Virus record (IMG/VR): IMGVR_UViG_3300045974_000462
Coordinates: 2,974 to 66,973 of that record
Length of the DNA stretch: 64,000 nucleotides
Source of the DNA: a virus
Strand: one strand, 5' to 3'
Shown here: positions 7,975 to 29,105 of the stretch, piece after piece
Numbering within the stretch: position 1 is the stretch's first letter
Layout: every line of letters starts with the position of its first letter
Notes under the pieces: model-generated
The model's input: the letters and a program-made list of their open reading frames with translations, nothing else
The model's database searches: none
Told to the model about the DNA's origin: nothing
Position numbers and translations under genes: made by a program

Positions 7975-8047
7975 GTCGCCAACGTATCAGGGGTTAAAGC
8001 TCCGTGTCTATTTTTTTGTTCGCGCTCGTAAAAAAAATGCGGGGCAG

Positions 8048-8120
8048 GGTGTAGCGACCATTCTGTGGCATCTTCTACTGTGTGAGGGCGCTGCTCTCTA
8101 TCCTACTCGGAGGTGTTGTC
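8048..8120 (+). promoter_or_regulatory. Conserved promoter cassette copy 1
   Basis: AGCGAC(8053)-17-TACTGT, GAGGG..CTCTC hairpin, GGAGG RBS. Confidence 0.8.
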
Positions 8121-8423
8121 ATGTTGAAAATTAAACAGGCTGTTCGGCGTCCGCTTATTTCCCGGCTCCATAAAGAGGTCAACTCCCTTTACCATTCCGG
8201 TATCCCCACTGACCAGATCGACGCCATCCTCCGCACTCGCGGCTTCATGCTCTGCTGCGAAGACGGGACGCCTTTCTCGGCCTTCTTCTGCGGCGAGTCC
8301 TCCTGTACGCTGCTGCACTTCGCCGACGTCGCTACCGGCGAGATGGTCGTTAATTGCTACCTGTCGCTGTCCTGGCACCAGATGCCTTCCGGGCGTTATG
8401 AAATCGTGGCCTATTTGACCTAA
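8121..8423 (+). CDS. Early-type hypothetical protein
   Basis: 100 aa after cassette 1; ends WHQMPSGRYEIVAYLT. Confidence 0.75.
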   Translation: MLKIKQAVRRPLISRLHKEVNSLYHSGIPTDQIDAILRTRGFMLCCEDGTPFSAFFCGESSCTLLHFADVATGEMVVNCYLSLSWHQMPSGRYEIVAYLT

Positions 8424-8463
8424 CCGAGCCCGCTGGCTCCTACCCGTTCTCTGGAGGTTTACC

Positions 8464-8655
8464 ATGAACTGTCCGCTCTGTACCGCTCCCATGAAGTTTC
8501 ACCATCGCATCCTGCACGAGTCGGCCCATGTTCCGGGCTACCACGACTCCCTGTCTTGCACTGATTGTTCCTGTGTCGTCAAGCTGGAGGTCAAGCTCCA
8601 CGAAGGCTTGCATAATATCGCCAATGGCTTAACGAGCGAGGGCGAGCCCATCTAG
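8464..8655 (+). CDS. Small Zn-ribbon protein
   Basis: CPLC...CTDC, GGAGG RBS. Confidence 0.6.
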   Translation: MNCPLCTAPMKFHHRILHESAHVPGYHDSLSCTDCSCVVKLEVKLHEGLHNIANGLTSEGEPI

Positions 8656-8677
8656 TATCGCCATTGTCTGTTGCTTC

Positions 8678-8704
8678 GGGGAGCCTTCGGGCTCCCTTTT
8701 TTTT
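8678..8704 (+). terminator. Terminator with TTCG loop
   Basis: gggagcc-ttcg-ggctccc-tttttttt. Confidence 0.85.
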
Positions 8705-8722
8705 CGTTTTTTTTCGTCGGCA

Positions 8723-8796
8723 GGGGTGAGCGACCGTTCTGTGGGATCTTCTATCATGTGAGGGCGCTGCTCTCTATCCCGCTCGGAGGTGTTGTC
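8723..8796 (+). promoter_or_regulatory. Promoter cassette copy 2
   Basis: AGCGAC(8729)-17-TATCAT, hairpin, RBS. Confidence 0.8.
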
Positions 8797-9120
8797 ATGG
8801 CAAATCCCGCAGTTAAATCCCTGAACGTCGTTGTTTCCAAAGGTTCGCAGTCTGTCTCCTACGTCGAGTTGCTGCAGGCTGGCGACTTCAAACTTCGCAT
8901 TGAAATCAAAAGCGACTCGTATGCTGCTCAGTCGTATGCCCGCATTTTGGTTTGGTCTCCGGCTGTCTTGGATTGGCATTTCGTGGAGTGCGTTCCGTCT
9001 TCTCTCATGGCTACTCCGGTTGGCCTTATTTATCTGCCGAGGGAGACCGGCGTCCACAAGTCCCATTTCCTGGCCGACCGTGGTGCTCTTGTTGCTCGGA
9101 TGCAGTTGGTCCTCTTCTAA
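8797..9120 (+). CDS. Hypothetical protein
   Basis: 107 aa from MANPAVKS after cassette 2. Confidence 0.7.
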   Translation: MANPAVKSLNVVVSKGSQSVSYVELLQAGDFKLRIEIKSDSYAAQSYARILVWSPAVLDWHFVECVPSSLMATPVGLIYLPRETGVHKSHFLADRGALVARMQLVLF

Positions 9121-9132
9121 ACCTTTCCGTCG

Positions 9133-9163
9133 CGGGAGTCCTTCGGGGTTCCCGTTATTTTTT
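9133..9163 (+). terminator. Terminator
   Basis: cgggagtcc-ttcg-gggttcccg-ttattttt. Confidence 0.75.
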
Positions 9164-9171
9164 CAATTCAT

Positions 9172-9250
9172 GGTGGTGCGACCATTCTGCGGCATCTTCT
9201 ACTATCTGAGGGCGGTGGCGCTCTCCAACAAAAAACTCGGAGGTTATGTC
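9172..9250 (+). promoter_or_regulatory. Promoter cassette copy 3
   Basis: TGCGAC(9177)-17-TACTAT, GAGGGCG/CGCTCTC hairpin. Confidence 0.8.
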
Positions 9251-9475
9251 ATGGCTATTTCGTCTCTGCAGCTCGGTTTCTTCTTTGCGGTCCCTTCCTC
9301 TAAAAAACACGTTACCGTTCCCGTCACGGCGCTTGAGTATTCCGCCATGATCGGTATGTCTATCCGGACCGCTCGTCGTCGGCTGGTTTCCCTCGCTGCC
9401 GCTGGTAAGGCCGAGTGTGTTCCCGTCACCATCCGGTCGTTGCCGATGATTCGTGAGAATCGCTATCTGCTCTAG
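9251..9475 (+). CDS. Small HTH-like protein
   Basis: LEYSAMIGMSIRTARRRLVSL resembles a winged HTH. Confidence 0.6.
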   Translation: MAISSLQLGFFFAVPSSKKHVTVPVTALEYSAMIGMSIRTARRRLVSLAAAGKAECVPVTIRSLPMIRENRYLL

Positions 9476-9484
9476 GAGGCTGTC

Positions 9485-9664
9485 ATGTCTGGTTATATCT
9501 TTTCTGGCTGTTCTGAGTATGGTGTGCGCTGGACGGAGTTCGGTCGCAATGACCGAGCGGTGTCCAAGGAGAAGTTCTTTTCCTCTCGCGAGGCTCGCGA
9601 CAAGTTCGCGGACAAGGTCCGCACCAAGGATTCCTTTTGGCGGTTCGATTCGTGGTTCAACTGA
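9485..9664 (+). CDS. 59-aa hypothetical protein
   Basis: GGAGG RBS, MSGYIFSGCSEYGVRW... Confidence 0.6.
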   Translation: MSGYIFSGCSEYGVRWTEFGRNDRAVSKEKFFSSREARDKFADKVRTKDSFWRFDSWFN

Positions 9665-9668
9665 AAAA

Positions 9669-9700
9669 ACGGGAGTCCTTCGGGGCTCCCGTTTTTTTTT
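9669..9700 (+). terminator. Terminator
   Basis: acgggagtcc-ttcg-gggctcccgt-tttttttt. Confidence 0.85.
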
Positions 9701-9709
9701 GAGTTGTAG

Positions 9710-9786
9710 GGGTAAGCGACCATTCTGCGGGATCTTCTACTATGTGAGGGGAGCGGTCCTCTCCAACAAATTTCGGAGGTTATGTC
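9710..9786 (+). promoter_or_regulatory. Promoter cassette copy 4
   Basis: AGCGAC(9715)-17-TACTAT, hairpin, RBS. Confidence 0.8.
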
Positions 9787-10095
9787 ATGGGATCGGTATC
9801 TGGTAAAATCTGGACGGCGGCTGAGGTGAAGGAAGAATTGAAAACTAAAAACTCTTGGCTCTGTCACGGCATCGTCGCCATCTATCAGCGGCAGACGGCA
9901 GACGAGCAGGCGGCTGAGACCACCATCGAGAACAACGGCGTCGGGTTCAACGGCTGCGATGGCGAGTTCCTCTCCTCCGTGGCAAAACAGTTGCTTGCTG
10001 GCCGGAAGCTGTCGGAGCGGCAGGTCACGGTGTGCCGAAAGGCCATGCTGAAGTATGCCGGTCAACTCTCCAAAATCGCAAACCATCAACTCTAG
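9787..10095 (+). CDS. Conserved phage early-type hypothetical protein
   Basis: IVAIYQRQTADEQ...ENNGVGFNGCD...LSERQ...KYAGQL. Confidence 0.8.
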   Translation: MGSVSGKIWTAAEVKEELKTKNSWLCHGIVAIYQRQTADEQAAETTIENNGVGFNGCDGEFLSSVAKQLLAGRKLSERQVTVCRKAMLKYAGQLSKIANHQL

Positions 10096-10105
10096 GGGGT
10101 ACGTT

Positions 10106-10372
10106 ATGAAAACGATAGAGCAAATTAAAGCCGACCTCGGCGTGTCCGTTGTCTCCATCCGGGTGCTCGTGATCCTCGCCGAGCAGGCTGGTCACGTTGT
10201 CGATGCTCTCGGGTGTGGTGTGAAAACCCGGCGCGACGGCTCTCAGTACGTTCCCTATGCGCAGCAGTATGGCGCTCGCCGTCCTCGCTCTACTGGCTAC
10301 CGGATCGTCGGTTCCGCTCGGGAGGTTGCCGAGTATCTGTTTTCTGAATCCTTGGAGGTGGAGTCATGTTGA
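10106..10372 (+). CDS. Hypothetical protein
   Basis: 88 aa, GGGGG RBS. Confidence 0.65.
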   Translation: MKTIEQIKADLGVSVVSIRVLVILAEQAGHVVDALGCGVKTRRDGSQYVPYAQQYGARRPRSTGYRIVGSAREVAEYLFSESLEVESC

Positions 10373-10698
10373 CCTTTAAAGAAATGCACGACGCTCGGTT
10401 CGCTCTCGTTGTGGATCAAAAACTTACCGGCGAGGCGCTGCTCTCGGCGCTTCGGTTGCTCACGCCTATCCCGGTGCTGGCCATTGACAACCACGGCCAT
10501 CAGTATCCGGTCTGCTTGGAGTCGACTCCTCGCGGCTTGGTGCTCTACTGCGTCGGCGCTCCGTCCGGGTGGTCGCTTCCTGACCTTCTGGACCGGGAGT
10601 ATTCGGGCTGCGGTCTGGCCTTCGACTACGGTCAGGGCTGGTTCTGGATGAATCCTGCAAACGTGCTGGCGTCGATTCCGGCGTATCTGCTCGGGTAG
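10366..10698 (+). CDS. Hypothetical protein
   Basis: 110 aa, GGAG RBS, followed by a terminator. Confidence 0.7.
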   Translation: MLTFKEMHDARFALVVDQKLTGEALLSALRLLTPIPVLAIDNHGHQYPVCLESTPRGLVLYCVGAPSGWSLPDLLDREYSGCGLAFDYGQGWFWMNPANVLASIPAYLLG

Positions 10699-10702
10699 CA
10701 AT

Positions 10703-10729
10703 GGGGAGCCTTCGGGCTCCCTTTTTTTT
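10703..10729 (+). terminator. Terminator
   Basis: gggagcc-ttcg-ggctccc-tttttttt. Confidence 0.85.
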
Positions 10730-10737
10730 GCGTTCAG

Positions 10738-10810
10738 GGTGGTGCGACCATTCTCCGGGATCTTGTATCCTGTGAGGGGTTTCCTCTCTATCTTACTCGG
10801 AGGTGCTGTT
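10738..10810 (+). promoter_or_regulatory. Promoter cassette copy 5
   Basis: TGCGAC(10743)-17-TATCCT, hairpin, RBS. Confidence 0.8.
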
Positions 10811-11089
10811 ATGTCCCATTCCGTCGCTTCGTCGTTCTTCACCGTTGTCCCTGAAACCAAGACCTTTGTTACTGAAATCAGCGATCTCGGCCTTGAGTTC
10901 CGTACCGGCACTACCTTTGGTCGGCGCTTCTTCGAGATCATTCACGAGGGTTTGACGCTCACCATGCTGTTCGTCTCCACCGACCGGAACGCCGACGAGG
11001 TTGTCGGGTGGCGCTTCGGTATCTCTGGTCTGAGTGCTTCCTGCTATCCCGAGTTCGCTGGCTACTCCGCTCTCATCATCAACGATTAA
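10811..11089 (+). CDS. Hypothetical protein
   Basis: 92 aa after cassette 5. Confidence 0.7.
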   Translation: MSHSVASSFFTVVPETKTFVTEISDLGLEFRTGTTFGRRFFEIIHEGLTLTMLFVSTDRNADEVVGWRFGISGLSASCYPEFAGYSALIIND

Positions 11090-12217: not shown

Positions 12218-13573
12218 CTATATCCCGGCTCTTCTGTTTCGCTCCTCACGCTCCTTGGCTTGCGCGGCACGTTCGTCTGGCAGCGTGTCGTGTTCGCCTC
12301 TCTGGTAGACCTTGACCTCGTTGTTCGGCGAGTATGAGGACCATGCGGATTGTTCAAAATCTCCACCGACTCGCTGCTTGATGTCGTAGTGGTCCCTGTT
12401 AAACTTGATGTGCCGCTGCTCCGGTTCGTACTTGTCCTCGTTGGTGGTGATCTGGACTCTCGGCTTTCCTCCCGGCCATGCCTGGACGTAGACTCCGGCG
12501 TCGTGCATGCCGTATTCCTTCGCCACTTCGACCAGCTTGGTGGCGATCTCGTGCGCCTTGGCGTGCTGGTTCTTCCGAGCGCTCGCCAGTATTGTGTCGT
12601 AGTTTTTGGTATTCCTTGCGGTCGCGTCGGCGTCGTATCGCTCGGTTAGTCCATTCTGTTGGCCTCTTCCCCATGCGTTCGATAGGTCTCCGCTATGGTG
12701 CGGGTTCTTGTTTGCTCCGTGGCCGAGTATCCCGGCTCGTGTCCCGTTGGCCCATGCTTCGTCTTTGGTGGTGGCTACCGCAGCGGGTACTGGTTTCGGT
12801 GCTGGCGCTGTGGTAGGCATGACCGCGAGCGTTACCCAGACGTCTCCGCCTTTGGTGCTGCTTCCCCTCGGAGTCTTGAAAACTTTTGATGTGGTGTTTT
12901 TGCCGGACCCGGTGACGCGGATGTCGTATCCCTGCTCGGCAAACCAGTTGTGCATATCTCCATCGGGGCTCCATCGTTTTTTCAGGCTGTCATGCCTGTC
13001 GTTTCCTCCGTAGTAGTAGCTGTCATAAACCGTCAGGTTTCCCCCTGGGTCGACGGCGGTCCTACCGTTACCTCCGGCTTCGGTGTATCCGAAGTCTGAG
13101 GAGCGGAGCGCTGCTTGGACGGCGAGTGCCGACCTCTTGTCCGGCTTGACGAAGGCTGGCGTCGGTGAGGGCTCTGGCGTCGGCATGGGAGTAGGGTCTG
13201 GTACCGGGTCGGAGTATTTCGGTGGATGTGCCGTCCACTTCATCTCCCCTTTCTGGTGGCCTTCCAGCATCTCGATCTCGTGGAAGTGTCCGCCGTGCAT
13301 GTTCTCCGTGCGACCGGTGTGGCGGGCAGCGTCGCCGTTGATAAAGACCGTTGTTCCCTTCGGTCTGGCGAGCGGGACGTCCGGTGGCCTCGGGTTCTTC
13401 GCGGCGATAATGCTGCTGGTCCCGCTGCGATTGGTCCGGGTGTATCCGACGTGGTGGGGGTCGGCATTTCCGAAGAGGTCAAGTTGCGCCGGGTTGTGTG
13501 CCGCTCTCGCCTTCAGGAGTGCGACCGTGATGGCAGCGGCGTGGGATATGGCCTTCTGGAGTTGGTCGATCAT
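12218..13573 (-). CDS. Tagged putative internal head protein, 451 aa
   Basis: N-tag QLQKAISHAAAITVALLKA..QLDLFG..HHVGYTRTNRSGTSSI; Pro-rich linkers. Confidence 0.8.
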   Translation of the reverse strand: MIDQLQKAISHAAAITVALLKARAAHNPAQLDLFGNADPHHVGYTRTNRSGTSSIIAAKNPRPPDVPLARPKGTTVFINGDAARHTGRTENMHGGHFHEIEMLEGHQKGEMKWTAHPPKYSDPVPDPTPMPTPEPSPTPAFVKPDKRSALAVQAALRSSDFGYTEAGGNGRTAVDPGGNLTVYDSYYYGGNDRHDSLKKRWSPDGDMHNWFAEQGYDIRVTGSGKNTTSKVFKTPRGSSTKGGDVWVTLAVMPTTAPAPKPVPAAVATTKDEAWANGTRAGILGHGANKNPHHSGDLSNAWGRGQQNGLTERYDADATARNTKNYDTILASARKNQHAKAHEIATKLVEVAKEYGMHDAGVYVQAWPGGKPRVQITTNEDKYEPEQRHIKFNRDHYDIKQRVGGDFEQSAWSSYSPNNEVKVYQRGEHDTLPDERAAQAKEREERNRRAGI

Positions 13574-13597
13574 GGCTTATGGCTCCTCGTACCACGG

Positions 13598-14008
13598 TTA
13601 TTTGTTATTCCTGCGGGTTTCGATGTATTTAGTGCCGTGGTTTTCGCTGATTTCGTCGCGGGTATGCTGTTCTTTCCAATCCATGATGATCTTCTGGTTG
13701 TTTTCAAGCGTGCGCAGTTTCTCTATGACGACCTTGTGTTCTCCGTCGTAGAGCCCGACCTTCTCGTTGATGCTGTCGAGTTTGCCGTTTATCCCGTTGC
13801 CCATCATGACAATTATGGCGACTCCTGCCGCGAAAATCAGACCGTTAGATTTCATCCAGAATTTGTTGGTCTTCAGGGTGCTGATGGTGTCCATGTGATC
13901 TCTGCAGGCCGGGTGACTTGAGACTACATCATCTCCGTGCTCGTAGTTGTAATCGTTGAGGCCATTAGCATTGTCGTTATCGGATTTCCTGCGGTTGTGT
14001 GGCTCCAT
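13598..14008 (-). CDS. Single-TM membrane protein with coiled coil
   Basis: RRKSD N-terminus, TM LIFAAGVAIIVMM, GGAG RBS. Confidence 0.7.
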   Translation of the reverse strand: MEPHNRRKSDNDNANGLNDYNYEHGDDVVSSHPACRDHMDTISTLKTNKFWMKSNGLIFAAGVAIIVMMGNGINGKLDSINEKVGLYDGEHKVVIEKLRTLENNQKIIMDWKEQHTRDEISENHGTKYIETRRNNK

Positions 14009-14025
14009 GTTCGTATCTCCTCTTG

Positions 14026-14538
14026 CTATAGAATAACGGGTTTCCCCGGTGTGGCTTGTATTTTGGCTTTGAATTCCTGAAATGGTACGGTTTTGATGGT
14101 CCCGAAGAATCGCGGGTTATCGTAGTGCTTGTGGAATGCGGAGCGGGCCTCGGCGCTGCTCTGCATCCCCAGAAAGACCTTTTGCTCATCGATGCTCTTG
14201 AAGTCTGGCGCTTGCATGATGGTCACCACGTAGACGTTCGGGGCTTCCCGCCAAGGTCCGACAAAAACGTCTAGTTCGTCGCCGTCCATGCCGGTGACTC
14301 CCCTGATGTATCCGTAGGGTATGTGCATCCGGTGGGTGCCGCTGGTCCCGTCGTGCGGGTTGTGCCAGATTCGGTTCCGGCTGCGACCGACCTCGATGCT
14401 GACCGGGATGCCGTTGAAGTCGAGGCGTCCGTCGAGGGTCTTTGGCTGCACCAGCTTGGTGTCCATGCCGTGGCGGTCGACCTCGGCGGCGGCTCGGAGT
14501 TGTGCCTCGGTGAAAAGTGCCTTGACGAGCAGCTTCAT
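14026..14538 (-). CDS. Tagged inorganic pyrophosphatase-like protein (polyvalent-protein InPase family)
   Basis: MKLLVKA start, ATGA-coupled; PYGYIRGVTGMDGDELDVFVGP...DEQKVFLG. Confidence 0.8.
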   Translation of the reverse strand: MKLLVKALFTEAQLRAAAEVDRHGMDTKLVQPKTLDGRLDFNGIPVSIEVGRSRNRIWHNPHDGTSGTHRMHIPYGYIRGVTGMDGDELDVFVGPWREAPNVYVVTIMQAPDFKSIDEQKVFLGMQSSAEARSAFHKHYDNPRFFGTIKTVPFQEFKAKIQATPGKPVIL

Positions 14539-15047
14539 CGCCTTTGCCGTTTCCCGCCTGCTGACTGTGGATGCGCCTCGTGCTCGACAAGGTCGCGCTG
14601 ACCGTAGACGTCGGCGTAATGGTCGACCGTCCATTTGTCGAGGTGCGCGGCGCTGGCAAACGTCTTGCGCCATCGCTCCGGCTTGAGTCGGCTTCCCTCT
14701 CGTGTGCCGTGTGCCTCGATCCCGTAGTGGTCGTGGGGTATCGCTGGCGCTACCGTCCGGCTGATCTCATCGTACTCGTCATCGTTCAGCAGTCCCTCGT
14801 CGCGGGCGGCGTCGAGTTCCGGGCGGGTCACGTTGCTCCCGATATCGTGCCAGTTCTTCCGGGCGTGGTACTCGTCGTCGTTGAAGAGCCCATCCCTGTG
14901 TGCCTGCTCCAGCTCGCCTCGTGACAGGTTCGTCGGCGTCACCTTGTTGTCGTATTCGCGGCGGGTGACGGCGGTTCCTCTGGCGGTGGTGTAGTTGCTG
15001 CCGTGGACGTGGCTTTTGACCAGCAGGTACAGTCCGTTGCGTTTCAT
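14535..15047 (-). CDS. Tagged putative internal head protein with duplicated helical motif
   Basis: AGGAG RBS; YLLVKSHVHGSNYTTARGTAVTRREYDNK; ELxxAxxDGLxNDDEY occurs twice. Confidence 0.75.
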   Translation of the reverse strand: MKRNGLYLLVKSHVHGSNYTTARGTAVTRREYDNKVTPTNLSRGELEQAHRDGLFNDDEYHARKNWHDIGSNVTRPELDAARDEGLLNDDEYDEISRTVAPAIPHDHYGIEAHGTREGSRLKPERWRKTFASAAHLDKWTVDHYADVYGQRDLVEHEAHPQSAGGKRQRR

Positions 15048-17731
15048 CGTGGGGTCTCCTTGCGGCGTGGGTCCGGCAGGCGTAGCGACCTGAAAAGTGA
15101 GCCTTGAGCCCATCCGGCCCGGTCCGGCTTCTCGGTGAGCCCGGACGCGGCCAGTTCCTTGGTGTCGATATGGCGACCGGCTGCGAGTTCGGCTTTCTGT
15201 CGGGCTCGTGTTCGGGCGCTCAGTCCGTCCTCGATCTGGGCCTTGTCGGTCAGGTATGCATGGACTTGTGCCTCGGCCTCGACTACTTTCTGTCGGGTCG
15301 GCTCGTCCAGCTTGTTCCAGTGGGGCAGGTGTTCAAAGCGGTAGTGGCGGAGTTTGTGGAGGTCGTAGTGGTTGTTGGCGTGGGCGAGTTTATTCCCGTA
15401 TGACCGGACGCGGCTATCCTCGTGCTGCCTGACGAGGGTGACCGCTCCGGACGGGATGTTGCGGTAGAATTCGTGGACTAGGGCTTTCTTAAGTCCTAGT
15501 TTGGTGAGAATCCTTCCGGCAATGCTCCGGGGTCCGGCTCCTTGCTCTTTGGTACTGCGGTCTTGGGTTTTAGGGTAGTAGTCTTGGCCGGTGCAGGTTT
15601 CCCCGCTGGAGCAGGTACCGGTGCGGGTGTCGGGGCGTTGGCAGCATCCTGGAGCGCCATCTGCTTTTCGGAGATAGCTATGGCGTCCATGAGGATGCTG
15701 CGTTTCTTCGCGTAAAGTTCTTTCTGCTTCTGTTCGTCGGCCATATGTGCCTCCTGATTTGATAAGTTGCGTCAGGTATCTTACCGATTTTTCAGCGTTA
15801 TCGCTACTCTTTAATTTCGCAAACGCTCCGGTGACTACCTGCTTCTTGTCCTTTGGCTGGTATGGCGTAGCGAAGAAGTCCTCTTGATCGACTTCCTTGG
15901 TGCGGTTGACGATCTCGTTGTGTATGGCCTGCGCGATGGACCCGAGCATGGTGCCGAGTTTGTCGGCGCTCCCGACGTGCTTCTCGATGGCCAGTGCAAA
16001 TTCCTTACCGTAGTCCGTGGCGAATCCCTGTTGATTGCGGTCCGTTCCGTCTCCTCCCAGACCCATGTCGCTCTGTTGAAACATTTGGGAGATGGTGCTG
16101 TTGCCGTTGCGGGCCCGGATGACGTTGCGTATGGCCTCTGTCATGTCAGGTATCACGTTGAATTCGTCGTTTCCATGAAGTTTGGCAAAATGGCCGACTG
16201 CGTTATTGAGCCCACCGATGATCCGCTTCATCCCGCTGTTGGCGCTCTCGGCCATCTGCTTGATCAGTGGTAAGTCTTGATAAATTTTGGCGAAAATTGC
16301 GGACTGTATCCGTTCTGCGCATTGCTTGTTCGGGGTGCCGTTTTCGTCTACGAGACCATCGGCCTCGTTGCGGCCTATCTTCGCAAAAAATCCCTGAATG
16401 AAGGGCAGGCTCGATTGCGCTTCAACATCAAATTCCCCGTCTTCGTTCGGGTTGAATTTGGCGAGCAGGGCGTCGTCTATCCGTCCTCCGTCCACGACTG
16501 CCTGTTGCGTCGGGCTCTCCTTTTTCTGCATTGGTACGTTGGCCTCGTGGGCGAAATTGGCGCGGTTGACTCCCTCCTGTGGCTCCCTGACCCGGACGAT
16601 CATCGGCATCTTCATGCCTTCGGCGGCTGCGGGGTCGATCCCGAATTCCTGCTGTGCGTTCTCGGTGATCCAGTCCTTGTATTCCTTCGCCTTGTCAGGG
16701 TTGGTCTCGTAGGCCATTTTGATTGCCAGAGACCGACCGTTTCCGCTCTCGACCATTCCGTCCTTGCCGACTATGGGCGATCCGTCTGACGCGAGCGGGT
16801 TCTTGCCAAATAACTCAGGCTCCAGCTTGTTCGCCAGTTTGACAATCTGCATCCGGCTGGCGACAGACGATCGGTCTCGGGGCTGGAGTTCGCTCGGGTA
16901 GTCGGTGTTTTCCGCTCCCTCTGCGCTGTGGCTGGTGGTCAAGCTGTCGCCGTCGACGAGGGCGTACTGCACCGGGTACTTCCCGAGGGTGTGGGTGATC
17001 GCGTTGGCCTTGTGTCCGAAGACGAACGTGGGCGCGGCTTTCTTTCCAGAGGAGAACTGCTCCTTCTTTCGCTCCGTCAGGTCGACGGCTCCCTTGATTT
17101 TGCGGTCCGGGTCGCCTCCTGCGGCCTCGACGGTTCCGTCCTTGCCGAGAATAACTTGGTGGCCGTTCTTCTCCATGACCGTGTGTTGTTCGGAGTCGTC
17201 GGCCTCGTGTCCGAAGTGCTTTAGGAGTTTCGTGCGATAGTCGTCTTCGGCCTGGGTATACAGGTTGCTCCGCGAGGTCTTGAATGCCTTTAGGTGGGCG
17301 ACGGGGTCGTCTCCTCCTGTCGCTGTGTGCATTGCCTTTATCTTGGTATTGGAGGTTTTGCGGGCGTCGTTGGTCTTGTTACGCTCCGTCTCGGGATAAA
17401 GGTTTGACTCAAAGTCTGGCCGGTCCTTGGCTTTACCTTCCGGGAGGTCTTTGTTGCGCTTGATGGCTGACTGCTCGCGCTTCTGCCATCCGGAGTCGGT
17501 CAGGTGCTGGAGGAGTTCGGCGTGGTGCGCCAGCTTATTGCCGGGGGAGACTTCTTCGCCGTGGCGGCGCTCGTGGGCGACGAGGTCAGGGTGCTTTATC
17601 ACCTTATTGTCGTGCTCCCTGACCAGAGTCCCGTCTTGACGGGTGTACTGGTGGATATGGCTTTTGGTCAGGGAATCAAAAAAAAAAGGTGCTTCCCCTG
17701 AAGCGGGCCTCCATTTGTCACGGCTACCCAT
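15044..17731 (-). CDS. Large tagged protein with DdrB-like ParB domain; start uncertain, possibly a frameshift fusion to the upstream sigma-like gene
   Basis: LTKSHIHQYTRQDGTLVREHDNK tag; YALVDGDSLTTSH...ELQPRDRS...DGSPIVGKDGMVESGNGRSLA; second tag LKKALVHEFYRNIPSGAVTLVRQHEDSR. Confidence 0.75.
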   Translation of the reverse strand: MGSRDKWRPASGEAPFFFDSLTKSHIHQYTRQDGTLVREHDNKVIKHPDLVAHERRHGEEVSPGNKLAHHAELLQHLTDSGWQKREQSAIKRNKDLPEGKAKDRPDFESNLYPETERNKTNDARKTSNTKIKAMHTATGGDDPVAHLKAFKTSRSNLYTQAEDDYRTKLLKHFGHEADDSEQHTVMEKNGHQVILGKDGTVEAAGGDPDRKIKGAVDLTERKKEQFSSGKKAAPTFVFGHKANAITHTLGKYPVQYALVDGDSLTTSHSAEGAENTDYPSELQPRDRSSVASRMQIVKLANKLEPELFGKNPLASDGSPIVGKDGMVESGNGRSLAIKMAYETNPDKAKEYKDWITENAQQEFGIDPAAAEGMKMPMIVRVREPQEGVNRANFAHEANVPMQKKESPTQQAVVDGGRIDDALLAKFNPNEDGEFDVEAQSSLPFIQGFFAKIGRNEADGLVDENGTPNKQCAERIQSAIFAKIYQDLPLIKQMAESANSGMKRIIGGLNNAVGHFAKLHGNDEFNVIPDMTEAIRNVIRARNGNSTISQMFQQSDMGLGGDGTDRNQQGFATDYGKEFALAIEKHVGSADKLGTMLGSIAQAIHNEIVNRTKEVDQEDFFATPYQPKDKKQVVTGAFAKLKSSDNAEKSVRYLTQLIKSGGTYGRRTEAERTLREETQHPHGRHSYLRKADGAPGCCQRPDTRTGTCSSGETCTGQDYYPKTQDRSTKEQGAGPRSIAGRILTKLGLKKALVHEFYRNIPSGAVTLVRQHEDSRVRSYGNKLAHANNHYDLHKLRHYRFEHLPHWNKLDEPTRQKVVEAEAQVHAYLTDKAQIEDGLSARTRARQKAELAAGRHIDTKELAASGLTEKPDRAGWAQGSLFRSLRLPDPRRKETPR
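15496..15744 (-). CDS. 82-aa Pro/Ala/Lys-rich ORF nested out of frame in the DdrB-like ORF
   Basis: Strong AGGAGG RBS; MADEQKQKELY... Confidence 0.5.
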   Translation of the reverse strand: MADEQKQKELYAKKRSILMDAIAISEKQMALQDAANAPTPAPVPAPAGKPAPAKTTTLKPKTAVPKSKEPDPGALPEGFSPN

Positions 17732-19029
17732 TGGCCTTCGGGGTGGAGATCATCGAGGCGCTCTCCCTGTCGGCTCTTTCTGAATTCCTCGGTGCAGAGA
17801 AAAACCCGGCGACCGTCGATGGTCTTGACCTGTGGCCGGTTCTTCCGGGCCTTCTGCAGCGTCCGGAGTTCCTGTATCGACCGGAGGAGGTCGTGCAGTT
17901 GCGCGACGCCTTTGTTCTGCCCGAGTTCTTCCAGCAGGTTCATGACGCGGCGGTGGGCGAGGCGGTCGTTCCATTCGTAGTCGTAGTTTTTGGCGGTGAC
18001 GTAGGGTACTCCCATCTCGTTCATGGCGTCGGCCAGTTCCCGGTATGTGTGCTCCTCGTGTGGCGCGAGTCCGAATCTGCGGTATATGATGTCTTGGTTG
18101 ACGGGATCGAGGTCGTCAATGGCGGCATTGATCCGCTCCGCTATCAGCTTCTCTTCCTGTGCCTTCTCGTAGAGGGATTGCGGGGTGTTCTCGTCGGCGA
18201 TGTTGTCGAGGGGGTCGGTGTCGCCGTCATCATCGTCGTGAAGGAGTGGGTCGCGGAGTTCCTTGCGGATATCGGTCAGGCGCTTGACGTCGGCGAGGGC
18301 GACCGTCTTCGCTTCTCGGTTCATGGCGACAAAAATGCGGGAGTTTGGTCGACCTTTGATCGAGACGGCTTCGGGGTCTTTGAGCCATGCGTCGTAATGG
18401 TCGAGGTCTTCTTTAAAGGCGGAGATGTCCTCTTCGGTGGCGGTGGCGGCTTCCCGGCGCAGGGAGTTCATTATTCCGATGGTGGCCTCGGCGTCGAGGT
18501 TGTCCCAATCGTCAGACTCGCGGTCGATGCTGTTGGTCCCGGCGTAGTTGGCGACGACGGCTCGCTTCATGTTCTGGATCTTGGGGTGCATCAAGATAGC
18601 GCCTTCCGTCATCCCCATCCGGACCGGGATGCTCTCGGCTCGCTCGTTGGAGACGGTGGCAGTCAGGCGGCGTCCCTTGGTGCTGGTCGTTTCCATGTTC
18701 GGGTTGGTGGCATATTTGTAGGCTTGGTTCTCGGAGTGTTCCTCTGGTGTCCAGATCATGTCCTCGTGGATATGGTGCTGTGGTCTCTGGCGGGTGCCTC
18801 TGAGCATCTTGCCTTGCACCACGAAGTGCTCCGCCATGTGGCTGTCATGGACAATGGTTCCCCTGCGGGCCTTTGGTGACCCGGCCACTTTATAAAAAAC
18901 GTCTTGGCCGGGGCTAAACTTCTGACCGACGTGGATCATGGCTCCGGTGATCGGATTGCGGCGATTGTATGCGACGTGACCGCGTTCTCCTGTGGTGGCG
19001 AGTGCTCCGGATTTTACCATAAGCAACAT
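17668..19029 (-). CDS. Sigma70-family-like factor carrying the N-terminal head tag
   Basis: MLLMVKS..GHVAYNRRNPITG tag; region 2-like DNLDAEATIGIMNSLRR; region 3-4-like DPLDNIADENTP...AAIDDLDPVNQDIIYRRFGL..EEHTYRELA; GGAGG RBS. Confidence 0.75.
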   Translation of the reverse strand: MLLMVKSGALATTGERGHVAYNRRNPITGAMIHVGQKFSPGQDVFYKVAGSPKARRGTIVHDSHMAEHFVVQGKMLRGTRQRPQHHIHEDMIWTPEEHSENQAYKYATNPNMETTSTKGRRLTATVSNERAESIPVRMGMTEGAILMHPKIQNMKRAVVANYAGTNSIDRESDDWDNLDAEATIGIMNSLRREAATATEEDISAFKEDLDHYDAWLKDPEAVSIKGRPNSRIFVAMNREAKTVALADVKRLTDIRKELRDPLLHDDDDGDTDPLDNIADENTPQSLYEKAQEEKLIAERINAAIDDLDPVNQDIIYRRFGLAPHEEHTYRELADAMNEMGVPYVTAKNYDYEWNDRLAHRRVMNLLEELGQNKGVAQLHDLLRSIQELRTLQKARKNRPQVKTIDGRRVFLCTEEFRKSRQGERLDDLHPEGQWVAVTNGGPLQGKHLFFLIP

Positions 19030-19071: not shown

Positions 19072-19099
19072 ACTATATCGGAATGTTTCTTGTGCTCAA
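19072..19099 (-). promoter_or_regulatory. Sigma70-like promoter for the sigma-like gene, back-to-back with cassette 6
   Basis: TTGAGC-16-TATAGT on the minus strand. Confidence 0.4.
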
Positions 19100-19116
19100 A
19101 CTTTTTTGTCATTCTG

Positions 19117-19190
19117 GGTGGTGCGACCGTTCTGCGGGATCTTCTACTCTCTGAGGGGTTTCCCCTCTATCTGCTTTTGGAGGTGTTGTC
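19117..19190 (+). promoter_or_regulatory. Promoter cassette copy 6
   Basis: TGCGAC(19122)-17-TACTCT, GAGGGG-TTT-CCCCTC hairpin, RBS. Confidence 0.8.
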
Positions 19191-19385
19191 ATGGCACAGA
19201 AATTCGTGGCTGTCAGTTTCACTTTTGCTCTCCCTGGTTACTGGTTAGTGAAACCTGACGGAGAGAACGTGTACTCGTATCGCGGCGAAGAGTTGACCGA
19301 GGCTGGTCGGGCGCTGGCTCACCAGTTTCCTTGTAACTGCGACAAACCGTTACTTCCGCATCATCTCGTGGGGGTGGCGTCATGA
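19191..19385 (+). CDS. Hypothetical protein
   Basis: 64 aa after cassette 6. Confidence 0.65.
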   Translation: MAQKFVAVSFTFALPGYWLVKPDGENVYSYRGEELTEAGRALAHQFPCNCDKPLLPHHLVGVAS

Positions 19386-19579: not shown

Positions 19580-19884
19580 CGCCTGCCGATCAAATCGTCC
19601 ACAATCTCGGCGGTCGGCGCTTCTTGGCCATGACCGGTGCTCATTCCCTGCTGTCTGTTGACCGCGACACCTTGCAGTTCAAGCTGCCGAGGTTCTCTGG
19701 CGTCAAGATCAATTGCGTCAGGATTACCCTGAACTGGCGCGACCTGTACGATGTCGAGTTCGGTCGCGTCGCCAAATCTCAGGGCGTCCCGACGTATGTC
19801 ATGCTGTCTCGGTCCGAGAATGTCTTTTGTGAGGATCTGGTTCAGGTGTTTGAATCCGCGACCGGTCTCGCTACTCGTCTGTAG
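19576..19884 (+). CDS. Conserved phage early-type protein
   Basis: IVHNLGGRRFLAMTGA...LQFKL...INCVRITL...DLYDVEF. Confidence 0.8.
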   Translation: MTPADQIVHNLGGRRFLAMTGAHSLLSVDRDTLQFKLPRFSGVKINCVRITLNWRDLYDVEFGRVAKSQGVPTYVMLSRSENVFCEDLVQVFESATGLATRL

Positions 19885-21073: not shown

Positions 21074-21102
21074 GGGGCGGGCCTTCGGGTCCGCCTTTTT
21101 TT
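21074..21102 (+). terminator. Terminator
   Basis: ggcgggcc-ttcg-ggtccgcc-ttttttt. Confidence 0.85.
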
Positions 21103-21110
21103 GCTTTCAG

Positions 21111-21181
21111 GGTGGTGCGACCATTCTGCGGGATCTTCTTCTTACTGAGCCAGTGTGCTCCATCAAACTCGGAGGTGGGTT
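21111..21181 (+). promoter_or_regulatory. Promoter cassette copy 7
   Basis: TGCGAC(21116) core, GAGC/GCTC hairpin, RBS. Confidence 0.8.
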
Positions 21182-23707
21182 ATGACCCTGTCAAAAATTA
21201 ACGGTAAGTATGTTGCGGCTACTTCGTATGCGGAAAAAGACGTACCAAAGGCGGCGGGTTTCCGTTGGGACGGCGTCAACAAGTGCTGGTGGACCGACGA
21301 CGTCAAGAAGGCGGCGCGGCTGGCCGAGTTCGCTGCCGACGATATCAAGGCGGAGTTGACCGCCATTTCCGAAAACCGGACCGAGGCGCTGGCTGCGTCG
21401 CGTGCTTCCGACCTCGTGATCGATCTTCCCGTTCCTGACGGGCTCGCCTATCTGCCGTATCAGCGGGCTGGCATCCACTATGCCTCGCAGCGTCCGGCGA
21501 CTCTGATCGGCGACGAGATGGGCCTCGGTAAAACCATCCAGGCTATCGGCGTGATCAATGCCGATGCCTCCATCAAGAACGTGCTCATCATCTGTCCGGC
21601 GTCGCTCCGTCTCAATTGGAAGAAGGAACTGGTCAAGTGGTTAACGTCTCCCATGTCCATCGGCATCGCAAACGGGACGTTTCCCGAGGAGTCGATCTGC
21701 ATCATCAACTACGACATTCTGAAAAAGCACCACGGCGCGATCATGGCTCGCTCGTGGGATCTGCTGGTGGTCGACGAGGCGCACTATCTGAAAAACGGCA
21801 AGGCGCAGCGGACCGAGTACGTGCTCGGGGCGAAGGAGAAAAAGGACAAGGTGACGAAGGAAATCACCAAGGCGGCGATCCCGGCTATCGCTGCTCGGCG
21901 TCGCGTCTTCATGACCGGGACGCCTATCGTGAATCGTCCGGTCGAGTTGTTTCCTCTGGTAAAGTCCCTCGATCCTGACGGGCTCGGTAAAAACTTTATG
22001 ACCTATGCCTATCGGTATTGCGCTGCTCACCAGACTCGGTTCGGGTGGGATTTCACCGGTGCGTCCCATCTCGATGAGTTGCAGGACAAACTCCGCGAGT
22101 CCATTATGGTCAGGCGCTTGAAGTCGCAGGTGCTGGTTGATCTCCCGGCGAAGCGGCGGCAAGTCATAGAAATCCCGGCTTCGGGTGCTATGGCTGTCGC
22201 TATCGATGTCGAGCGTCGGGCGTGGTTGCTCCATGAAGATGCTCTTGATGAACTGCGGGCCAAGGTTGAAATCTCCAAGGCCAGTAGTAATCCCGAGGAC
22301 TACGCGACTGCGGTCCGGAATCTCCGCGAGGCTGCAAAGGTCGCCTTTGAGGAAATCTCCAAGGTCCGCCATGATACTGCTGTTGCGAAAATTCCCGCCG
22401 TGGTCGAGCATGTAAAGCAACTACTTGAAAATGTTGACAAAATTGTCATTTTCTGCCACCATCACGACGTCGTAAATGGTCTTGTAAAGGAGTTTTCAAA
22501 TGGGGAATATGGTAGATTTGACGGGGATGGTATTCGGGAAGTGGACAGTGTTGTCTCGGGCGGAAAACGGGCGGTGTCGGCAGATAATGTGGAGTTGTCG
22601 ATGTCTCTGCGGAGTCGTCAGGGACGTGATGGGGAACTCCCTGAAATCGGGCAGGTCGTTGGGCTGCCTTGCTTGCCGACCTCAAAAACACGGACAAGCT
22701 CGGACGAGGGAGTATCGTTGGATGGTTCAGGTCAAGAAGCGAGCGAAAAATTCCGGGGTTCTGTTCGATCTGAAGTTGTCGGATTTTGTGATGCCGGAGA
22801 AGTGTCCGCTTCTGGGTATTCCGATCTTCTTCACGGACCAGAGGTTTTGCGACAACAATCCGTCGATAGACCGGATCGATCCGGCGTTGGGCTACGTCAG
22901 GGACAACATCTGGGTGATCAGTTGGCGGGCGAATGCCATCAAACACAATGCCTCTCTGGAAGAGTTGGAGATGCTGTCCGCAAACCTACGCTTGAAATTA
23001 AAGGTGGGGTGATGGTTGCGGTCCTGACCGGCGAGACGAAGATGGCCGACCGGCAGGCGGCTGTCGAGCGGTTCCAGTCCGATCCCTCCTGTCGCTTGTT
23101 CATCGGGTCCATCGGCGCTGCCGGTGTCGGCCATACCCTGACCGCTGCCTCCACGGTATTGTTCGCCGAGTTGGATTGGGTTCCGGGTAATGTCTCGCAG
23201 TGCGAGGACCGCTGCCATCGTATCGGGCAGACCGGTTCCGTGCTGGTTCAGCATCTGGTTCTGGAAGGCTCGCTGGATGCGCGGATGGCTGAGATTCTCG
23301 TCTCCAAGCAGTCAGTGATCGATTCTGCTCTTGACCGTGTCCACGGCGACAAGGTGTCGGCGGCGGTTGCTCATGCCGCGAAACTGGCGGCGGATACTCC
23401 GGCTGTTCCAGGTGCCGCTGCTACTACCGGGTCGGTGTCTCGGGAGCAGGTTGAACGCGAGGCGCTGGTGCTCACGGCGGCTCAGGTTGAGGCGATCCAT
23501 TCCGGTCTGCAGATATTGGCCGGGATGTGTGACGGTGCTTCGTCCCATGACGGTATGGGGTTCTCCAAGGTGGACGCCTATATCGGTCGGCAGTTCGCGT
23601 TGCAGGAGTCGCTCTCTGCTCGGCAGGCTGTTGTCGGCCAGAAGATCGTCAACAAGTACCGGCGTCAGCTTCCGTCTGCTCTACTGGAGGCGGCGATGGG
23701 TCGGTGA
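21182..23707 (+). CDS. SNF2/HARP-like (annealing) helicase with DUF5710-like N-terminus and a ~170-codon insertion
   Basis: DEMGLGKTIQA, LVVDEAHYLKN, MTGTPIVNRP, KIVIFCHH, AAGVGHTLT, QCEDRCHRIGQ. Confidence 0.92.
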   Translation: MTLSKINGKYVAATSYAEKDVPKAAGFRWDGVNKCWWTDDVKKAARLAEFAADDIKAELTAISENRTEALAASRASDLVIDLPVPDGLAYLPYQRAGIHYASQRPATLIGDEMGLGKTIQAIGVINADASIKNVLIICPASLRLNWKKELVKWLTSPMSIGIANGTFPEESICIINYDILKKHHGAIMARSWDLLVVDEAHYLKNGKAQRTEYVLGAKEKKDKVTKEITKAAIPAIAARRRVFMTGTPIVNRPVELFPLVKSLDPDGLGKNFMTYAYRYCAAHQTRFGWDFTGASHLDELQDKLRESIMVRRLKSQVLVDLPAKRRQVIEIPASGAMAVAIDVERRAWLLHEDALDELRAKVEISKASSNPEDYATAVRNLREAAKVAFEEISKVRHDTAVAKIPAVVEHVKQLLENVDKIVIFCHHHDVVNGLVKEFSNGEYGRFDGDGIREVDSVVSGGKRAVSADNVELSMSLRSRQGRDGELPEIGQVVGLPCLPTSKTRTSSDEGVSLDGSGQEASEKFRGSVRSEVVGFCDAGEVSASGYSDLLHGPEVLRQQSVDRPDRSGVGLRQGQHLGDQLAGECHQTQCLSGRVGDAVRKPTLEIKGGVMVAVLTGETKMADRQAAVERFQSDPSCRLFIGSIGAAGVGHTLTAASTVLFAELDWVPGNVSQCEDRCHRIGQTGSVLVQHLVLEGSLDARMAEILVSKQSVIDSALDRVHGDKVSAAVAHAAKLAADTPAVPGAAATTGSVSREQVEREALVLTAAQVEAIHSGLQILAGMCDGASSHDGMGFSKVDAYIGRQFALQESLSARQAVVGQKIVNKYRRQLPSALLEAAMGR
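22500..23012 (+). mobile_element. HNH-type homing endonuclease gene overprinted (+1 frame) inside the helicase gene
   Basis: DLTGMVFGKWTV..WSCRCLCG..GCLAC; CPLLG..PSIDRIDPALGYVRDNIWVISWRANAIK; AAGGAG RBS; TGATG overlap with an internal helicase Met. Confidence 0.85.
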
Positions 23708-23834: not shown

Positions 23835-23864
23835 TATAAACAAAACCGTTTTTTTTGCGTATCA

Positions 23865-23938
23865 GGGTGGTACGACCATTCTCCGGGATCTTGTTCTTAC
23901 CGAGGGCGCTGCTCTCTATCCTGCTCGGAGGTGCTTTA
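23865..23938 (+). promoter_or_regulatory. Promoter cassette copy 8
   Basis: TACGACCATTCTCCGGGATCTT, hairpin, RBS. Confidence 0.8.
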
Positions 23939-24118
23939 ATGAAAACGAATAATGATCCTGTCCACTATTTCAGATTTCTTACTCCTGACGACGGCGACGT
24001 TTCTGCTTGCGGTATCAATCTCACCAGAAATGGTGTCAACCGAGTTAGCTATTCTTTTAATGTCAAAAATGTAACGTGCGCCAAATGTGCCAGAAAATTA
24101 AATGAGGTGCGGTCATGA
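23939..24118 (+). CDS. Small Zn-binding protein
   Basis: HY..ACG..VTCAKC. Confidence 0.65.
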   Translation: MKTNNDPVHYFRFLTPDDGDVSACGINLTRNGVNRVSYSFNVKNVTCAKCARKLNEVRS

Positions 24119-25584: not shown

Positions 25585-25790
25585 CGATTTGCCTCTCGAC
25601 TCTGGTCGGGAGGCTTTTTTTGTCTGGAGGGAGTCGCGGGCTCCGTGGTGGCGATGAGAATTTTCCGGGTAGGCGTCTCGTTCCTGGTCCGGTCCTTATC
25701 CCGGCCTGCCTTGGGAGGTGAAAACGGCTTACAGGTCATTTTTGCTCGTCGCATCTTTTTTTGGCCAGCTTCGCTATTTTTGTCATTTAT

Positions 25791-25845
25791 GGTGAAGCGA
25801 CCATTCTGCGGGATCTTCTACTGTGTGAGGGGCATGGTCCTCTCC
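25791..25845 (+). promoter_or_regulatory. Promoter cassette copy 9
   Basis: AGCGAC(25796)-17-TACTGT, hairpin. Confidence 0.8.
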
Positions 25846-25938
25846 GGTCTGATTGAGGTGCGTGGGTGCGCTTGGATTGCACTCTGGTGCCTGCCGGGTC
25901 CGCTGGTTTCGGCGCTGTCAACTATGGGAGGTGTAGTC

Positions 25939-26727: not shown

Positions 26728-26755
26728 GGGGAGCCTTCGGGCTCCTCTTTTTTTT
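26728..26755 (+). terminator. Terminator
   Basis: gggagcc-ttcg-ggctcct-ctttttttt. Confidence 0.8.
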
Positions 26756-26763
26756 CGTCTCCA

Positions 26764-26835
26764 GGGTGGTGCGACCATTCTGCGGCATCTTGTTCTTACC
26801 GAGCCTACGGCTCTATCCCATTTGGAGGTGTCTTC
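26764..26835 (+). promoter_or_regulatory. Promoter cassette copy 10
   Basis: TGCGAC(26770) core, GAGCC-TAC-GGCTC hairpin, RBS. Confidence 0.8.
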
Positions 26836-27216
26836 ATGTTCCGTCCTGCTCTCTCGACTCTCGTTGTTGGCGACAAGGCTTTCTACAGCACTCGTCATGG
26901 TTCTCGCGTCATTGCTCCGGTGATCAAGATCACCAAGACCCAGATCACGGTCGGTTCTGGCAATTCGGTCAAACGCTTTATGCTGGACAACGGTCGCGAG
27001 GTCGGCGGATCGACGTACCACTCGGCTCATCTCTGTGTCCTTACCGCTGAGGACGAGGTCAACGTGGTTGCCGAAATGGAGCGGAATGCGCTGATTCGCA
27101 AGGCGCAGGATCTTGTGGACAAGGTGGCCGGTATCAGTTGCCGTCGCGAAGAGAACGACCGGCTGGAGGCCATCATCGCGGCGCTCTCTCCTCTCTTCTC
27201 GGGGGTGTCTCCGTGA
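26836..27216 (+). CDS. Hypothetical beta-barrel-like protein
   Basis: VVGDKAF..VIKITKTQITV. Confidence 0.75.
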   Translation: MFRPALSTLVVGDKAFYSTRHGSRVIAPVIKITKTQITVGSGNSVKRFMLDNGREVGGSTYHSAHLCVLTAEDEVNVVAEMERNALIRKAQDLVDKVAGISCRREENDRLEAIIAALSPLFSGVSP

Positions 27217-27485
27217 CGCGGGATTTGCACTTTGCGGAGTGGGGAAACGGGACGCAGTACGGTCCCTCGTGGGTCGGTCCTCGGTACCGGTATGGCTATC
27301 GTAACCGGCCATTCGCCTATGCGCATCAACCGGACGGTTTTCTGGGTGGTCCCGGTGCGATTGACAGTAACTTTCGCGATCCGGTGGCGGGCATCCGTCA
27401 CGGCTGGATCGACTATCCGTTTGAACTGACGGAGCGCGAGGTCGATGCGTATGAGTTGGTTCCGATGGGGGAGGTGACGGTATGA
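27213..27485 (+). CDS. Hypothetical protein
   Basis: YGYRNRPFAYAHQPDG...YPFELTEREVDAYEL. Confidence 0.65.
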   Translation: MTRDLHFAEWGNGTQYGPSWVGPRYRYGYRNRPFAYAHQPDGFLGGPGAIDSNFRDPVAGIRHGWIDYPFELTEREVDAYELVPMGEVTV

Positions 27486-27621
27486 GTTTCGACGACGGTA
27501 ATTATAACGACCGGGAGTCTTTTCCCTGTCCGTGCGGCGGCGACGTCGTGTTCTTTGAGGATACCGGACTCTGGATCTGCCAAGAGTGCGGGTGTCTTCC
27601 GGGGATGTTGGAGGCGAAACC

Positions 27622-28630: not shown

Positions 28631-28756
28631 GAGACCGTATCGTTATCGCCTGTTTCAATCATCGGTACTGGAGTGGCAATAATCCGGATCGCTTCTATCT
28701 GGTGGTGGATGTGGGGAAAGACGTCTATTTCTACGACAGCATGGAGGGGTGACACC

Positions 28757-29047: not shown

Positions 29048-29051
29048 CAAC

Positions 29052-29088: not shown

Positions 29089-29105
29089 GCGTTCTGTGTT
29101 CGGGG

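Follow-up and report, generated by a model that had tools for sequence, protein, structure and literature searches.

Can a phage carry a sigma factor in its head and eject it with the DNA, so that host polymerase is redirected on entry? The question is raised by P0001, an open reading frame (ORF) of 453 amino acids (aa) on the minus strand (17668..19029) of a 64,000-nucleotide (nt) stretch, hereafter the window, of the uncultured 69-kb viral contig IMGVR_UViG_3300045974_000462 (record positions 2,974-66,973). An earlier sequence-only reading had described this ORF, which is present as stated there, as a sigma70-like protein with a head-packaging tag. We find that its sigma-70-like identity is supported, for region 4 by sequence and for regions 2-4 by fold, language-model features and a docking model, so that this part of the earlier claim holds; we regard the sigma reading as strong for the sigma-4-like domain and moderate for the sigma-2-like domain. 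Also supported is that P0001 shares its tag with neighbour genes whose products are characteristic of phage head cargo (DdrB-ParB, InPase and putative zinc peptidases). Virion delivery and promoter use are reasonable inferences from this context. We propose, with about as much belief as doubt, that P0001 is a divergent sigma-70-family lead module of head cargo, packaged and ejected with the DNA to redirect host polymerase.

Sigma-70 likeness in sequence, fold and predicted contacts

To place P0001 among known proteins, we compared it with family models and with proteins of known structure. The Pfam model Sigma70_r4 matched below threshold (E = 0.0095, 15.9 bits against a cut-off of 24.1). Among the 13 NCBIfam matches, 12 were to sigma-70-family models (RpoS, SigK, RpoD, RpoH, SigE and extracytoplasmic function (ECF) sigmas), all on residues 246-337, with E-values from 2e-5 to 0.45 (10 at E <= 7e-3) and all below the curated full-length cut-offs, and a search of PDB sequences with P0001 returned RpoS (E = 0.003). 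A family profile made from 26 of 33 relatives, with zero sigma factors among its seeds, retrieved about 55 PDB sequences, nearly all of them sigma region 4 (best E = 7e-6). The alignment between profile and sigmas spans region 4.1 and the helix-turn-helix with its recognition helix and extends as far as the L-R-x-F-L tail at the C-terminus of primary sigmas; relatives that have no insertion in the turn carry T-K-E-K-V at the position of sigma-70 T-R-E-R-I. Judged from sequence, the resemblance of this part to sigma-70 regions 3.2/4 is beyond chance; the NCBIfam models and the family profile bear out the region 3.2/4-like segments noticed earlier. Region 2 gave no such result: Sigma70_r2 (PF04542) had no match anywhere in the contig even at E <= 10, and a profile of the sigma-2-like domain found no sigma among PDB sequences at E <= 10. 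The segment that had been labelled region 2-like, residues 174-190, thus has no sequence-level support, but it does form a helix in the structural model, within a domain that matches sigma domain 2. A word-indexed search of 5.8 billion proteins returned P0001's own record as the only 100% match, and a word-indexed search with the sigma-2-to-4 profile likewise returned that record only. No relatives of P0001 were found in viral contigs, and cultured-phage records gave no DNA match to the window.

An AlphaFold model from the single sequence was unusable, with a predicted local distance difference test score (pLDDT) of 37, whereas a model from the 26-sequence alignment reached 78, with values above 90 over residues 40-260 and 290-380 and with the tag (1-34) and acidic linker (263-283) disordered. 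Structure searches with this model gave just two kinds of match, one of them to sigma factors over residues ~127-390. The Foldseek comparison with sigma70 that the sequence-only reading had suggested put sigma factors on top in both databases: the best PDB matches were sigma-32, sigma-S and SigA, and the best 14 in AFDB Swiss-Prot were all sigma factors (E 7e-5 to 5e-3), with alignments that lay residues 98-395 of P0001 onto nearly full-length sigmas, collinear over both domains. In the model, a sigma-2 fold precedes the linker and the sigma-4 fold in the collinear order of the sigma-70 family; the match of the sigma-2-like domain is at fold level only, with a middling Z. ESM Atlas features grouped residues 100-400 with phage sigma-factor clusters (score 0.94).

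These comparisons define the following layout, given from the N-terminus on the minus strand. The N-terminal tag (residues 1-35; 18925..19029), which is homologous to the N-termini of relatives and is matched by a hidden Markov model (HMM) of half its motif, is followed by a Tudor/SH3-like beta-barrel (residues 36-95; 18745..18924); polymerase-binding Tudor domains of the CarD/Mfd type were not among the listed matches of this barrel, which does not exclude them. Next come the sigma-2-like helical domain (residues 124-259; 18253..18660), which holds a region-2.2-like helix at 171-188, and an acidic, disordered, region 3.2-like linker (residues 260-283; 18181..18252; pLDDT <50) that aligns to the acidic stretch of region 3.2 in RpoS/RpoD. 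The sigma-4-like domain (residues 284-396; 17842..18180) has an insertion of ~11-16 residues in the turn of its helix-turn-helix, and its C-terminal helix aligns to the sigma-70 tail. The C-terminal extension (residues 397-453; 17671..17841), delimited by the family alignment and modelled with low confidence, contains a small beta unit in common with P0010, P0013 and P0022. Both of the C-terminal motifs described earlier, L-Q-K-A and F-R-K-S, are found here, and their counterpart in the relatives, an F-L-K-S / L-R-K-S pair, is conserved across the family.

We then modelled the sigma-2-like domain, with its alignment, against residues 225-345 of E. coli beta-prime as a stand-in partner. The complex scored an ipSAE of 0.68 against 0.02 for the best control and passed a mark that 58 of 80 solved complexes and 2 of 110 mismatched pairs reach, which is a rough guide here since a custom alignment was used. 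Three runs had at least 89% of contacts in common, with a partner pLDDT of at least 84. The modelled interface joins the clamp-helices coiled coil (beta-prime 263-305) to E142 and residues 171-188 of P0001, the latter being the segment that had been labelled region 2-like. The predicted contact positions are among the most conserved of the family: across the 26 sequences, E142 is invariant, L146 is kept in 21, position 177 is acidic in 23, E181 is kept in 17, and position 187 is M, I or L. The E-x5-M spacing in P0001 is the same as that between E407 and M413 of sigma-70 region 2.2. In the modelled complex, the docking pass shows a likeness to the binding mode of sigma-2 on the clamp helices; because sigma-beta-prime complexes have already been solved, we read it as likeness only and not as binding by P0001.

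A split polyvalent protein in the head gene block

An exhaustive HMMER search identified 33 relatives of P0001. In about 25 of these, the sigma-like module makes up the N-terminal ~400 residues of proteins that are 1,000-2,100 aa long and are encoded between portal and capsid genes; most relatives have the same module order: tag, barrel, sigma-2-like domain, linker, sigma-4-like domain and the F-L-K-S / L-R-K-S segment. The partner domains of the long relatives are DdrB-like ParB, InPase, SNF2 helicase (P0004 and P0011), LPD1 (P0010) and HAD. The module is fused in frame to DdrB-ParB in P0006, P0008, P0014, P0017, P0019, P0020, P0023, P0025 and P0026. P0006, which is encoded in a prophage and flanked by a portal gene and an SU10-type capsid gene, carries the sigma-like module, DdrB-ParB and InPase in a single chain, and the window keeps this order over four ORFs: the sigma-like ORF, an 895-aa DdrB-like ParB ORF (15044..17731, minus; PF18763, E = 1.7e-32; tag at its start and at ~15496), and two tagged cargo ORFs (14026..15047, minus), namely a 170-aa SHOCT-like ORF (start 15047) and an InPase ORF (start 14538). 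The last three are joined by ATGA stop-start overlaps at 15044-15047 and 14535-14538 (minus), the 170-aa ORF having a good ribosome-binding site as well; the longer starts that the ORF finder gave for these overlapped cargo ORFs are probably not used. P0001 is therefore the lead module of a polyvalent protein split into tagged ORFs, and not a free-standing sigma in kind, which the sequence-only reading had missed. For large polyvalent proteins with DdrB-ParB/InPase, packaging and injection have been predicted (Iyer, Burroughs, Anand, de Souza, Aravind 2017, PMC5512222). The survey that describes them lists no sigma domain ('sigma' has 0 occurrences; PMC5512222), and in the literature we found no paper on a sigma domain within polyvalent proteins or virion cargo.

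A few relatives of ~400 aa stand alone, among them P0005 (L005 6829-8070), which lies beside DnaB in a context adjoined by a 746-aa transglycosylase, and P0007 (L007 5869-7059), which lies in a small integrase/AlpA island; these loci could be satellites or other mobile elements. P0018 (449 aa) and P0024 (560 aa) have an unusual architecture in which sigma region-4-like repeats, about six in each protein, follow one another in tandem (Sigma70_r4 E ~1e-21).

The tag itself was compared in the same way. At the N-terminus of the relatives, a hydrophobic head and K-S are followed by H-V-x-x-Y-x-R-x-x-x-G-x-x-V; P0001 has the hydrophobic head and K-S, then a 10-residue insert, then H-V-A-Y-x-R-R-N-x-x-x-G and I-H-V. 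An HMM of the compact form, made from relatives only, gave nine significant matches in the window, confined to the minus strand and to the array that stretches from the portal gene to P0001, including the start of the next ORF (E = 6e-12) and a second, internal copy (3e-9); it left the N-terminus of P0001 unmatched. An HMM of the second half of the motif, again from relatives only, did match this N-terminus (E = 0.015), in 8th place among 941 six-frame stretches, and the seven better matches all lay inside the cargo array. Taken together, the HMMs matched 9-10 ORFs, every one of them in this array. The tag claimed for P0001 is thus present and homologous to the starts of its relatives, although it is weak, split and missed by the compact-form HMM. 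The motif also occurs inside long relatives at module borders (e.g. 3x in P0009). Its role could thus lie in loading, in processing, in linking modules or in several of these, a choice that the sequence-only reading had overlooked. We infer that it is more than a cleavage site, because each split ORF keeps residues upstream of K-S.

The tagged ORFs form an array of about 13 on the minus strand directly downstream of the portal gene (27000-39825 and 12218-19029). The array starts right after the portal gene (39828-41573) and runs towards the protease, scaffold and capsid genes, the capsid protein being of SU10 type. Members of the array match the PHROGs categories 'minor head protein', 'virion structural protein' and 'DarB-like' antirestriction, and its content includes ART/RNase-like, DdrB-ParB and InPase proteins and two H-E-x-x-H proteins. 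The latter (37460-38662 and 38674-39825) match PHROGs common to polyvalent proteins, and no peptidase family model matched them. From its sequence, we read the array as a polyvalent protein whose modules are here encoded by individual genes. One tagged ORF (451 aa, 12218-13573, minus) resembles ribosome modulation factor over residues 272-312, though below threshold (PF04957, E = 1.7e-4).

The border between P0001 and the next ORF differs from the ATGA overlaps. Before the TGA stop (17670-17668), the minus strand has a 5-bp hairpin (17704-17691), ACC and a run of ten T (T10; 17687-17678), together 17678..17704, and a -1 shift at T10 enters the frame of the next ORF and continues into its tag. 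The junction is also present in L004, an independent 1.2-kb contig from another sample that is ~90% identical and has the same T10 and stop (L004 250-290). Upstream of T10, all three nucleotide differences in L004 are silent in the P0001 frame and replace residues in the overlapping one; downstream, it is the -1 frame that is conserved. We take the junction to be real because L004 keeps both T10 and stop and because the substitution pattern switches frame at the run. Most likely, it allows two products to be made, the protein of 453 aa and, through slippage in translation or transcription, a fused one of ~1,330 aa.

Expression signals and promoter-like cassettes

The ATG of P0001 at 19029 is preceded at 8 nt by the ribosome-binding site GGAGGA (19043-19038, minus). 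Public gene callers place the start at the second Met, three codons further in; we favour the first Met because of the spacing to the ribosome-binding site and because of the tag consensus. Further upstream lies a host-type promoter candidate, TTGAGC with a 16-nt spacer and TATAGT (19072..19099, minus), which is a consensus match only (9/12).

The sequence-only reading had also described 13 promoter-like cores, and we confirm these as 12 copies on the plus strand and one on the minus. Each belongs to a cassette with the order terminator, T-tract, core of ~30 nt, weakly conserved TAnnnT, leader and GGAGGTG-ATG. About 19 positions of the core are invariant, and its best-conserved part is the -35/spacer and not the -10. 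The plus-strand cassettes lie at 8029-10813, 19098-19192, 21092-21165, 23847-23941, 25772-25866, 26746-26819, 58884-58937 and 62101-62154, and the minus-strand copy at ~37131; the cassette at 19098-19192 is nearest to P0001 and divergent from its gene. Non-structural genes, among them that of the SNF2 helicase, follow the cassettes, and the segment of the cassettes that comes closest to a host promoter, GCGACC-16-TACTAT, agrees at ~7/12 consensus positions. A possible link between P0001 and the cassettes is attractive. No copy of the core was found in viral contigs, and the 30 single matches in metagenome contigs came without a flanking cassette and without a sigma-like gene, as by chance. The prophage relative L010 has no window core and has a 20-nt intergenic word of its own, GTAGCG-C/T-ATA..CAAACAA, in six copies and both orientations (8210-8229, 9798-9817, 14977-14997, 16228-16247, 19763-19783 and 23626-23646).

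No second sigma or phage RNA polymerase was detected in the contig, where the search for the T7-type family was uninformative, as its control gave no match. A second weak Sigma70_r4 match (~33003-33089) was rejected as a sigma, since it corresponds to the HTH_23 in an ORF for a TnsA-like endonuclease. A 226-aa ORF (47225-47905, minus) contains the C-terminal domain of the RNA polymerase alpha subunit (alpha-CTD; PF03118, 52.8 bits against a cut-off of 23.8) after a Cys-rich N-terminus and a basic coiled region, and has no cargo tag. It is the second polymerase-subunit-like protein of this phage, and the T-tracts of the cassettes lie at the position of an UP element.

A proposed packaged sigma and the competing explanations

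According to the proposal of a packaged sigma, P0001 would be made together with the head genes, loaded into the capsid via its tag, freed at L-x-K-S-type borders and ejected with the phage DNA. On the host core polymerase, its sigma-2-like domain would sit on the beta-prime clamp helices and its sigma-4-like domain on the beta flap, redirecting the enzyme to phage promoters, and slippage at T10 would re-fuse P0001 to the DdrB-ParB module. A bolder form of this proposal, for which we see a rather small chance, would have P0001 packaged both alone and T10-fused to DdrB-ParB, then freed, so that it takes hold of core on the incoming genome and activates the 12 plus-strand cassettes ahead of all phage protein synthesis; the alpha-CTD protein may later act on the upstream T-tracts of the cassettes.

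It is important to point out that several observations weigh against a packaged sigma. The insertion in the helix-turn-helix turn of P0001 is long, helix 230-259 (S-R-I-F...) has, by eye, no obvious counterpart of the sigma-70 tryptophan pair of region 2.3, and among 50,697 phage records no protein matched P0001 or residues 1-440 of P0009. The contig has an estimated completeness of 79%, and another sigma or polymerase could sit outside it. The tag of P0001 is, by its sequence, a split and weaker version of the family-wide tag, and a motif that recurs inside proteins need not be a targeting signal. A late-made sigma acting on early promoters would moreover need to be silenced until packaged, and the host-type promoter candidate suits ordinary post-infection expression equally well.

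The last point leads to the explanation that P0001 is an ordinary sigma that stays out of the capsid and is expressed by its own host-type promoter once infection is under way, which would switch polymerase to the cassettes or to late promoters in the manner of SPO1 gp28 or phiEco32 gp36, with the tag as a module linker or processing site. This we consider unlikely. In its favour, TTGAGC-16-TATAGT and a strong ribosome-binding site stand directly upstream, all the evidence of sigma likeness applies to it equally, P0007 and P0005 stand alone at ~400 aa outside head modules, and the tag of P0001 is weak. It has to contend with the fact that most relatives fuse the module to DdrB-ParB/InPase cargo in the head gene block, and that P0001 itself is the first gene of an operon on the structural strand whose members encode tagged cargo, with T10 allowing its fusion to the next; free phage sigmas are not known to carry such a tag or fusion. 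Alternatively, P0001 might be injected and act as a sigma mimic, which would block the sigma sites of the host core to shut off host transcription, or would tether cargo or the entering DNA, without recognizing or melting promoters. The predicted core-binding surface is indeed the most conserved part of its domain, the expected -10 melting region has no sequence match to sigma, the turn of the helix-turn-helix has a long, variable insertion, and the module rides on multi-effector proteins with a role in host takeover (PMC5512222). Yet the sigma-4 recognition helix is kept, near canonical in the insertion-free relatives, as is the whole collinear layout of sigma-2, linker and sigma-4, and the window has 12+1 unusual promoter-like elements with no other sigma or polymerase found; we judge the mimic to be unlikely, slightly more so than the ordinary sigma.

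The remaining two explanations dispense with a polymerase partner or with an intact gene. P0001 could be a helical DNA-binding or structural adaptor, unrelated to polymerase, that anchors cargo to portal, scaffold or DNA, its sigma likeness being that of a common helix-turn-helix plus a helical bundle. The module is nearly always first in the long relatives, like head-anchoring MuF domains elsewhere (PMC5512222), and the sigma-2 match is at fold level with a middling Z; the sequence matches are nevertheless specific to sigma-70 region 3.2/4 rather than to generic helix-turn-helix proteins and reach the C-terminal tail, the top structural matches are sigma factors only and are collinear over both domains, and the docking model reproduces the sigma-2/clamp-helices mode with conserved residues, which together make an adaptor improbable in our view. 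That P0001 is a broken gene or an assembly artefact, in which a homopolymer error gave a false stop in a long polyvalent gene, is suggested by T10 lying exactly at the frame change and by relatives with one continuous frame. We give this explanation very little credence, as L004, ~90% identical and from another sample, agrees in T10 and stop and shows substitution patterns that compensate, and as the other module borders are clean ATGA overlaps with ribosome-binding sites, so that splitting is the rule here.

A packaged sigma would combine features of several known systems. The phage proteins phiEco32 gp36 / SU10 gp32, SPO1 gp28 and T4 gp55 likewise belong to the sigma-70 family, and P0001 would share with them the redirection of host core; they differ in being free-standing early or middle genes without cargo tag, Tudor-like domain or fusion partners. 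We rejected the presence of the SU10 sigma in particles as evidence for packaging, given that it was a single peptide alongside DNA polymerase and other non-structural proteins (PMC4281155). With the large polyvalent proteins and with DdrB and DarB of P1, P0001 shares multi-module cargo in the head block with DdrB-ParB, InPase, SNF2 and LPD1, and with zinc peptidase modules as candidates here (PMC5512222), and such proteins have been predicted to 'jump-start' transcription or replication after injection (PMC5512222); in contrast to those surveyed, the polyprotein is here split into tagged ORFs. N-terminal capsid targeting has been proven for DarB (PMC9024508), whose signal is not the tag motif of the window. 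The virion RNA polymerases of N4 (vRNAP) and of phiKZ-like phages also place transcription capacity in the capsid, which is ejected with the DNA and makes early non-host promoters readable at once, but these are complete polymerases, whereas P0001 would supply the specificity subunit only and use the host catalytic core. T4 Alt and the internal proteins are head-packaged and N-terminally tagged, and Alt reprograms host RNA polymerase on entry; unlike P0001, Alt is an ADP-ribosyltransferase, and the T4 capsid-targeting signal is a peptide of ~10 residues cut at L-x-E, unrelated in sequence to the ~30-residue tag here. Among bacterial sigmas, those of group 4/ECF type and group 3 have the same order of sigma-2, flexible acidic linker and sigma-4, the best structural matches being SigK, SigE, RpoH and SigA; P0001 differs in having no Sigma70_r2 signature, an extra helix in the sigma-2 part, the long sigma-4 turn insertion, the N-terminal Tudor-like domain and the C-terminal extension.

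Two routes to the start of phage transcription are known, the host holoenzyme being borrowed in one and a whole polymerase being injected in the other. If our proposal of a packaged sigma is true, carrying just the specificity subunit would be a third and cheaper one, and it would explain how the programme starts in a phage whose non-structural genes all lie behind one non-host promoter type. The model offers a testable interface, with E142, E181 and M187 predicted to face the beta-prime clamp helices. Whether or not P0001 is packaged, a recurrent first domain that is derived from sigma and probably binds polymerase adds transcription hijack to the repertoire of polyvalent cargo, a class so far described mainly by its nucleases, methylases, peptidases and ADP-ribosyltransferases.

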